Shown in pieces: positions 697-720 of a stretch of DNA of 64,000 nt (positions are counted from its first letter, which is position 1; each line of letters opens with the position of its first letter). The DNA is from a virus. Taxonomy: Duplodnaviria; Heunggongvirae; Uroviricota; Caudoviricetes. The notes below the pieces were generated by a model that saw only the letters and a list, made by a program, of their open reading frames with translations, searched no databases and was not told where the DNA came from. Both the position numbers and the translations under genes were made by a program. The DNA is taken from the IMG/VR virus record IMGVR_UViG_2724679236_000008. One strand, written 5' to 3'.

Positions 697-720
697 AACA
701 AATGACTAGCAGTAGAATCA
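697..720 (+). promoter_or_regulatory. Late-promoter-like motif CAACAAATGACtagcagTAGAATca
   Basis: Near-identical motif recurs upstream of other structural/lysis operons (32123, 47703; variants at 19930, 57948); 28 nt upstream of the 748 start. Confidence 0.35.

Follow-up and report, generated by a model that had tools for sequence, protein, structure and literature searches.

A repeated motif in a P1-like plasmid prophage of Escherichia albertii corresponds to the late promoter of phage P1

The motif repeated along the 64,000-nt stretch of viral DNA analyzed here (the window) is the textbook late promoter of phage P1, and as such it is already known. Almost certainly, the sites that carry it are late promoters of a P1-like plasmid prophage that depend on the P1-type activator Lpa. 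We infer promoter function in this replicon from orthology to P1, and no evidence in the window contradicts the explanation.

By its alignments, the window represents a plasmid prophage of the P1 type from Escherichia albertii. Positions 30000-50000 are 96% identical to P1 (AF234172) on the opposite strand, and the window as a whole aligns to P1 from 79202 down to 17059, with most blocks at 93-97% identity and a few segments replaced. Positions 50000-64000 are about 100% identical to the E. albertii plasmid pEA4_97 (NZ_CP117679.1, IncY, 97,069 bp), on which the window starts at record position 80761. In the BLAST map nothing from P1 corresponds to two segments, namely 17457-19833, around the par/rep region and upstream of LP23, and 25364-27259, after the gene 23-pmgF late operon. 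At 51402-53012, about 1.6 kb with gldA (glycerol / 1,2-propanediol dehydrogenase; 51564-52667, minus strand) stands in place of about 1.4 kb of P1 sequence within the annotated ddrB, and a 562-aa ORF at 52970-54658 probably represents what is left of ddrB. The P1 match ends beyond LPpro; P1 has darB where the window has 61882-64000. The equivalent region of pEA4_97 is annotated with a PapB/FocB-family regulator, a fimbrial subunit and a PefC-type usher, and it looks like a fimbrial operon carried by the P1-like prophage. A run of 10 N at 46637-46646, between the invertible tail-fibre segment and cin and near cixL, probably reflects a gap left by assembly or masking.

In the P1 record, 11 late promoters are annotated, each of which combines a 9-bp "-22 region" with a -10 signal across a 4-nt spacer (9 nt in LPhot). 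The box AAGTGACTT is found in LPmat (spacer cagt, -10 CAGAAT) and LP23 (tcaa, TAAAAT), the box AAATGACTA in LPsit (ctcg, TAGAAT) and LP26 (gcgg, TAGAAT), and the box AAGTTACTT in LPdar (tgca, TACCAT), LPs (atct, TACAAT) and LPhot (tgctggtta, AATAAT). The others carry AAGTGACTA (LPpro; gtgt, TAAATT), AAGTGATTT (LPlyz; gcat, TATCCT), TAGTCATTT (LPpmgL; gttg, AATATT) and ATGTGACTT (LPpac; tcgt, TACCCT). Ten annotated P1 late promoters were combined into a position weight matrix (5 + 9 + 4 + 6 nt), with which both strands of the window were scanned. Seven orthologues of P1 promoters ranked first, at 23.2-29.7 bits; none of 500 first-order Markov surrogates scored 23 bits or more. The eighth match is an unannotated site inside gene 7 (2400-2423, 19.8 bits), a level that 2.2% of the 500 surrogates reached, giving a chance probability of about 2% per window. 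The ninth and next match, at 14957-14980, scored 11.1 bits.

LP26 lies at 697..718 on the plus strand (matrix match 695-718, rank 4, 27.5 bits), with AAC at 697-699, the box AAATGACTA at 700-708, the spacer gcag and the -10 TAGAAT at 713-718. It corresponds to P1 LP26 at 78485-78503 and precedes the baseplate and tail genes 26-25-7-24-6-5, the ATG of gene 26 being at 748. LP23, the counterpart of P1 58825-58843, was found at 19930..19951 (+) (19928-19951, rank 2, 28.9 bits) as AAC, box AAGTGACTT (19933-19941), spacer tcaa and -10 TAAAAT (19946-19951), in front of genes 23 (capsid), 22 (sheath), 21 and following. An exact 19-nt match to P1 LPsit is present at 32124..32145 (+) (32122-32145, rank 6, 25.7 bits), where AAC is followed by the box AAATGACTA (32127-32135), the spacer ctcg and TAGAAT (32140-32145), upstream of pmgC-tub-pmgB-sit-pmgA-bplA-16. 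LPs at 40384..40405 (+) (40382-40405, rank 3, 27.6 bits) has GAC, the box AAGTTACTT (40387-40395), the spacer ctct and TACAAT (40400-40405); it matches P1 LPs at 38318-38336 and serves the tail-fibre genes R-S-U. LPlyz, at 57949..57970 (+) (57947-57970, rank 5, 25.8 bits; P1 20969-20987), consists of AAC, box AAGTGATTT (57952-57960), spacer gcat and -10 TATCCT (57965-57970), and drives lyz (ATG at 58058) together with the downstream lydD/lydE. The highest score belongs to LPpro on the minus strand at 61671..61692 (61671-61694, rank 1, 29.7 bits; P1 17251-17269), which drives prt (portal) and pro and carries AAC, the box AAGTGACTA at 61681-61689, the spacer gtgt and TAAATT at 61671-61676. The seventh orthologue, LPdar, is described below.

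These promoters share one anatomy. They lack a -35 element and have a quasi-palindromic 9-bp box with the consensus AAGTGACTT, usually after (A/G)AC; the centre of the box falls about 22 nt upstream of the transcription start, and a 4-nt spacer of free sequence and the -10 TAnnnT follow. At the seven sites the box, in the form AAATGACTA, AAGTGACTT, AAGTTACTT, AAGTGATTT or AAGTGACTA, is a AAGTNACTT-like inverted repeat; the 4-nt spacing is fixed throughout, and the hexamer reads TAGAAT, TAAAAT, TACAAT, TACCAT, TATCCT or TAAATT. All seven point toward the gene that opens a late (morphogenesis or lysis) operon, and each is orthologous to an annotated P1 late promoter, with the same relative position, box, spacer length, -10 and downstream operon. 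LPsit and LPdar are identical to P1 over 19 nt; where a comparison was made, the spacer alone distinguishes the others from their P1 counterparts. What differs from P1 is the replicon, an E. albertii plasmid with other cargo, and LPpmgL, whose -10 is without its final T. Orthologues of 7 of the 11 P1 late promoters are in the window; lpa, LPpac, LPhot and LPmat are outside it.

Could the repeated 10-mer have arisen by chance or from base composition, or be left over from a DNA duplication, without regulatory role? Its shortness alone would favor this reading. However, AACAARTGAC occurs in six exact copies (697+, 2402+, 19930+, 32124+, 47704+ and 61692-), against 0.22 expected from dinucleotide shuffles of the window, and 0 of 100 such shuffles gave six copies. 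The shared motif announced by a sequence-only reading of this DNA is real, being far above chance. The flanks of the copies are mutually unrelated and the copies are therefore not duplicated DNA. Moreover, the spacing from motif to -10 is fixed, the confirmed sites are without exception directed at the first gene of a late operon, and diverged relatives retain the motif. Statistics and orthology refute the chance reading, and its probability is close to nil. Hardly more credible is that the sites are ordinary constitutive sigma-70 promoters, with TGAC of the motif as a displaced -35. ATGACT does resemble TTGACA, and a -10-like hexamer is present at each site, but the gap from TGAC(T) to the -10 is only 5-6 nt instead of about 17, and on this spacing we rejected TGAC as a displaced -35. 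The hexamers at the proper position, 17 nt upstream of the -10, are GATATT, GAAAGT, CTCAAT, GCGGGG, ACCGGT, CGTAGC and AATCCT at the seven sites, none of them TTGACA-like. The P1 record and the relevant passages of PMC10695390 likewise place the P1 late promoters in an activator-dependent class, and the reading as Lpa-dependent late promoters is the one we retain.

Comparison with the annotation also allowed us to correct the earlier description. The 10-mer joins AAC, the three nucleotides 5' of the annotated box, to positions 1-7 of the box, and the motif had been drawn 3 nt too far to the 5' side. Five operon promoters had been proposed from it. Coordinates 697 and 19930 are right, whereas 32123, 47703 and 57948 are each off by one and should read 32124, 47704 and 57949; the consensus AACAA(A/G)TGAC is exact at four of them, the copy at 57949, a seventh one, having one mismatch (AACAAGTGAT). 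A TA-rich hexamer does follow at every genuine site, but the gap is exactly 6 nt (two box bases and the 4-nt spacer) and not 6-9 nt, and 47704 has no acceptable -10. The proposed distance of 25-60 nt to the first gene holds for gene 26 and pmgC (51 and 53 nt from motif start to start codon) but not for gene 23, lydA and lyz (73, 65 and 109 nt). The expected dependence on a phage late activator agrees with the identity of 697, 19930, 32124 and 57949, which are the orthologues of LP26, LP23, LPsit and LPlyz in AF234172; 47704 is a look-alike near LPdar. Absent from that description were LPpro at 61692(-), LPs at 40384 (GACAAGTTACTT), the copy at 2402 in gene 7 and the divergent LPpmgL.

LPdar itself is located at 47719..47740 (+) (47717-47740, rank 7, 23.2 bits) and is an exact match to the annotated P1 promoter, with GAG, the box AAGTTACTT at 47722-47730, the spacer tgca and the -10 TACCAT at 47735-47740. 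It precedes the lysis and antirestriction operon lydA-lydB-hdf-darA-ddrA. Since its box is preceded by GAG, it does not match the earlier consensus. The copy at 47704..47713 (+), AACAAATGAC followed by cggttg-AGAAGT, is box-like without a usable -10, and it is present in P1 as well, at 31248(-). Its match to the extension plus the first 8 box bases (AACAAATGACC) is exact, and in the window as in P1 some 18 nt separate it from LPdar downstream. This would fit a functional second site at which Lpa binds as an auxiliary, or a late promoter in tandem with LPdar, serving the lydA-darA operon. We consider such a role improbable, since no TAnnnT hexamer stands at the fixed spacing and the copy scores below 12 bits even on a box-only matrix. 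Furthermore, at least 46 of 79 IMG/VR LydA loci have the copy disrupted or replaced, whereas the box, spacer and -10 of LPdar are invariant in all 79, and the copy is absent from phage JK004. In the same loci the LPdar leader shows three single-locus substitutions, and homology breaks immediately upstream of the promoter. As a late promoter we rejected 47704, because it has no -10, because the annotated LPdar is 18 nt downstream and because the motif is lost in many relatives. Also discarded was an LPdar-like sequence inside the gldA insertion (52813-52836; ctgag-ACGTTACTT-tgca-TATGAT), which at 10.2 bits is at chance level, 2.5 matches of at least 10 bits being expected by chance per surrogate; no extended homology links it to the LPdar region.

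Fine footprints were obtained from gp7- and LydA-based locus searches, which return only relatives that are 98-100% identical. Across 74 IMG/VR loci the twelve bases AAC-AAATGACTA of LP26 stay constant, while the spacer differs between loci (gcgg, gcga, gcag or tcgg) and the -10 keeps TAnAAT; this invariance is evidence that the LP26 element is under selection. On the other strand the same palindromic box belongs to LPpmgL, the predicted divergent partner, at 690..708 (-) (TAGTCATTT-gttg-AATATC). Its -10, at 690-695 on the minus strand, is AATATC in the window versus AATATT in P1, so the final T is lost. The position is outside the 30 best matrix matches in the window (below 3.6 bits), compared with 10.2 bits for the P1 promoter. 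The hexamer just upstream of the LP26 box, which is this -10 on the other strand, varies freely among the 74 loci and suggests that the predicted divergent late promoter is under little constraint. The operator consensus of the C1 repressor, ATTGCTCTAATAAATTT, has 8 matches within 3 mismatches against 0.34 expected, at 659-675, 10248-10275, 13781-13797, 28937-28953, 30596-30612 and 57908-57924. The copies adjoining LP26 (O26) and LPlyz (Ossb) correspond to annotated P1 operators, and early and late control elements thus lie side by side.

The bases 5' of the annotated box deserve attention. AC at this position (usually AAC or GAC) carries 1.5-1.6 bits per base, as much information as box positions; it is present in 8 of the 11 P1 promoters and at the ten best sites of JK004, and it is invariant in the 74 LP26 loci. 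The effective Lpa element may hence be asymmetric and 11-12 bp long, (A/G)AC plus AAGTGACTT, rather than the symmetric 9-bp repeat that is annotated, although this has possibly been described already. If true, the asymmetric extension would account for the unidirectional firing of a palindromic box. The site within gene 7, 2400-2423 (+), reads acAAC-AAGTGACTG-gtga-TAACCT and lies 46 nt inside the gene, in a poorly conserved acidic N-terminal stretch. P1 has the identical site at 76801(-), where its record annotates no late promoter. JK004 keeps it in part (AC-AAATGACCG-gtga-TACGCT), with the R position and TAnnnT retained despite amino-acid changes, and gene 7 of phage D6 has its own late-type box directly upstream. 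The last two bases of the -10 are changed in 2 of 8 distinct close variants. Taken together, these observations are no more than suggestive of an unannotated internal late promoter in gene 7 of P1-like phages, which again may have been described before. Such a promoter could boost genes 24-6-5 or give a shortened gene 7 transcript. That the asymmetric 11-12 bp site and the internal promoter both hold is a tentative proposal, and we would sooner expect the pair to fail than to stand.

A tblastn search with Lpa gave only matches with E>2 in the window, and the presence of its gene rests on the near-identical plasmid record pEA4_97. There, a "late promoter-activating protein" at 66842-67294 is identical to P1 Lpa at 151/151 positions, counting the stop. 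The gene lies about 13.5 kb before the window start, with LPpac just downstream of it, and the protein matches the Pfam family PF25716 (BPP1_LPA; 3e-57). Passages of PMC1891329 describe Lpa as a protein that binds DNA in a sequence-specific way and acts with SspA, and the host protein SspA as required for activation of P1 late promoters (citing Hansen et al., 2003); portions of PMC7515715 and PMC8201110 also deal with the trans factor and its mechanism. Ps and Pdar were reported as homologous late promoters (Guidolin et al., 1989, as cited in an excerpt of PMC9025707). P1 late transcripts start about 7 nt after the -10 in an Lpa- and SspA-dependent manner, according to excerpts of PMC1891329, PMC10695390 and, for Guidolin et al. 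(1989), PMC9025707; our literature search for P1 transcription-start maps gave only gene-level RNA-seq (PMC8201110). Carried over from this literature to the window replicon, Lpa (gp10) would be made from an early promoter under C1 repressor control and would bind the box. Together with SspA, which associates with RNA polymerase, it would then let the sigma-70 holoenzyme initiate at boxed promoters. Late in lytic growth, the tail, head, tail-fibre, antirestriction and lysis operons would be switched on in this way.

Searching phage records by tblastn with Lpa yielded two diverged complete genomes, JK004 and D6. Cronobacter phage JK004, whose Lpa is 67% identical, keeps the P1-type box, always after AC. 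Downstream of its sites the sequence agrees with the mat, 23, pro, pac, 26 and sit regions of P1, and further sites are taken to be the counterparts of s and lyz. In phage D6 (MF356679.1; Lpa 31% identical) there is one P1-type site only. Instead, AAATCACAnACT, followed after 3 nt by a -10 hexamer, occurs at 9 sites versus 1.4 expected. Most of these are immediately upstream of morphogenesis, lysis or dar genes, with sites before prt, R, pmgB, gene 7, ddrB, lydA and orf16 (lysin); one is oriented toward darB, and gene 23 is preceded by a close variant of the box. Examples of the putative late-promoter box are at 25240-, 38134-, 45510- and 67412-. The D6 sites resemble those of P1 in having a conserved box directly upstream of the -10 and before late operons, and the sequences inspected by eye showed no conserved -35; they differ in the box itself and in the 3-nt spacer, and the P1-type 10-mer is present only once. 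That a diverged activator goes with a different box in a similar layout is the expectation for an activator-dependent promoter class. From P1, JK004 and D6 we infer that activator and box change together, and the comparison of P1 and JK004 with D6 would illustrate co-evolution of promoter element and activator.

Positive control of late genes by a phage factor is a general point for temperate phages, as stated in part of PMC10695390. The E. albertii plasmid prophage keeps at least seven P1 late promoters and the matching plasmid keeps an identical activator, which suggests that the late gene programme of the prophage is intact. Beyond correct annotation this has little significance, and the possible 5' extension and the gene 7 site would refine a well-studied system only slightly. 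Mu C protein, P2 Ogr and lambda Q likewise represent one small phage-encoded factor that positively controls late genes, but these proteins, their DNA sites and their mechanisms are unrelated to the Lpa system of P1. Lambda Q works by antitermination, whereas P1 uses a box at -22 together with host SspA.
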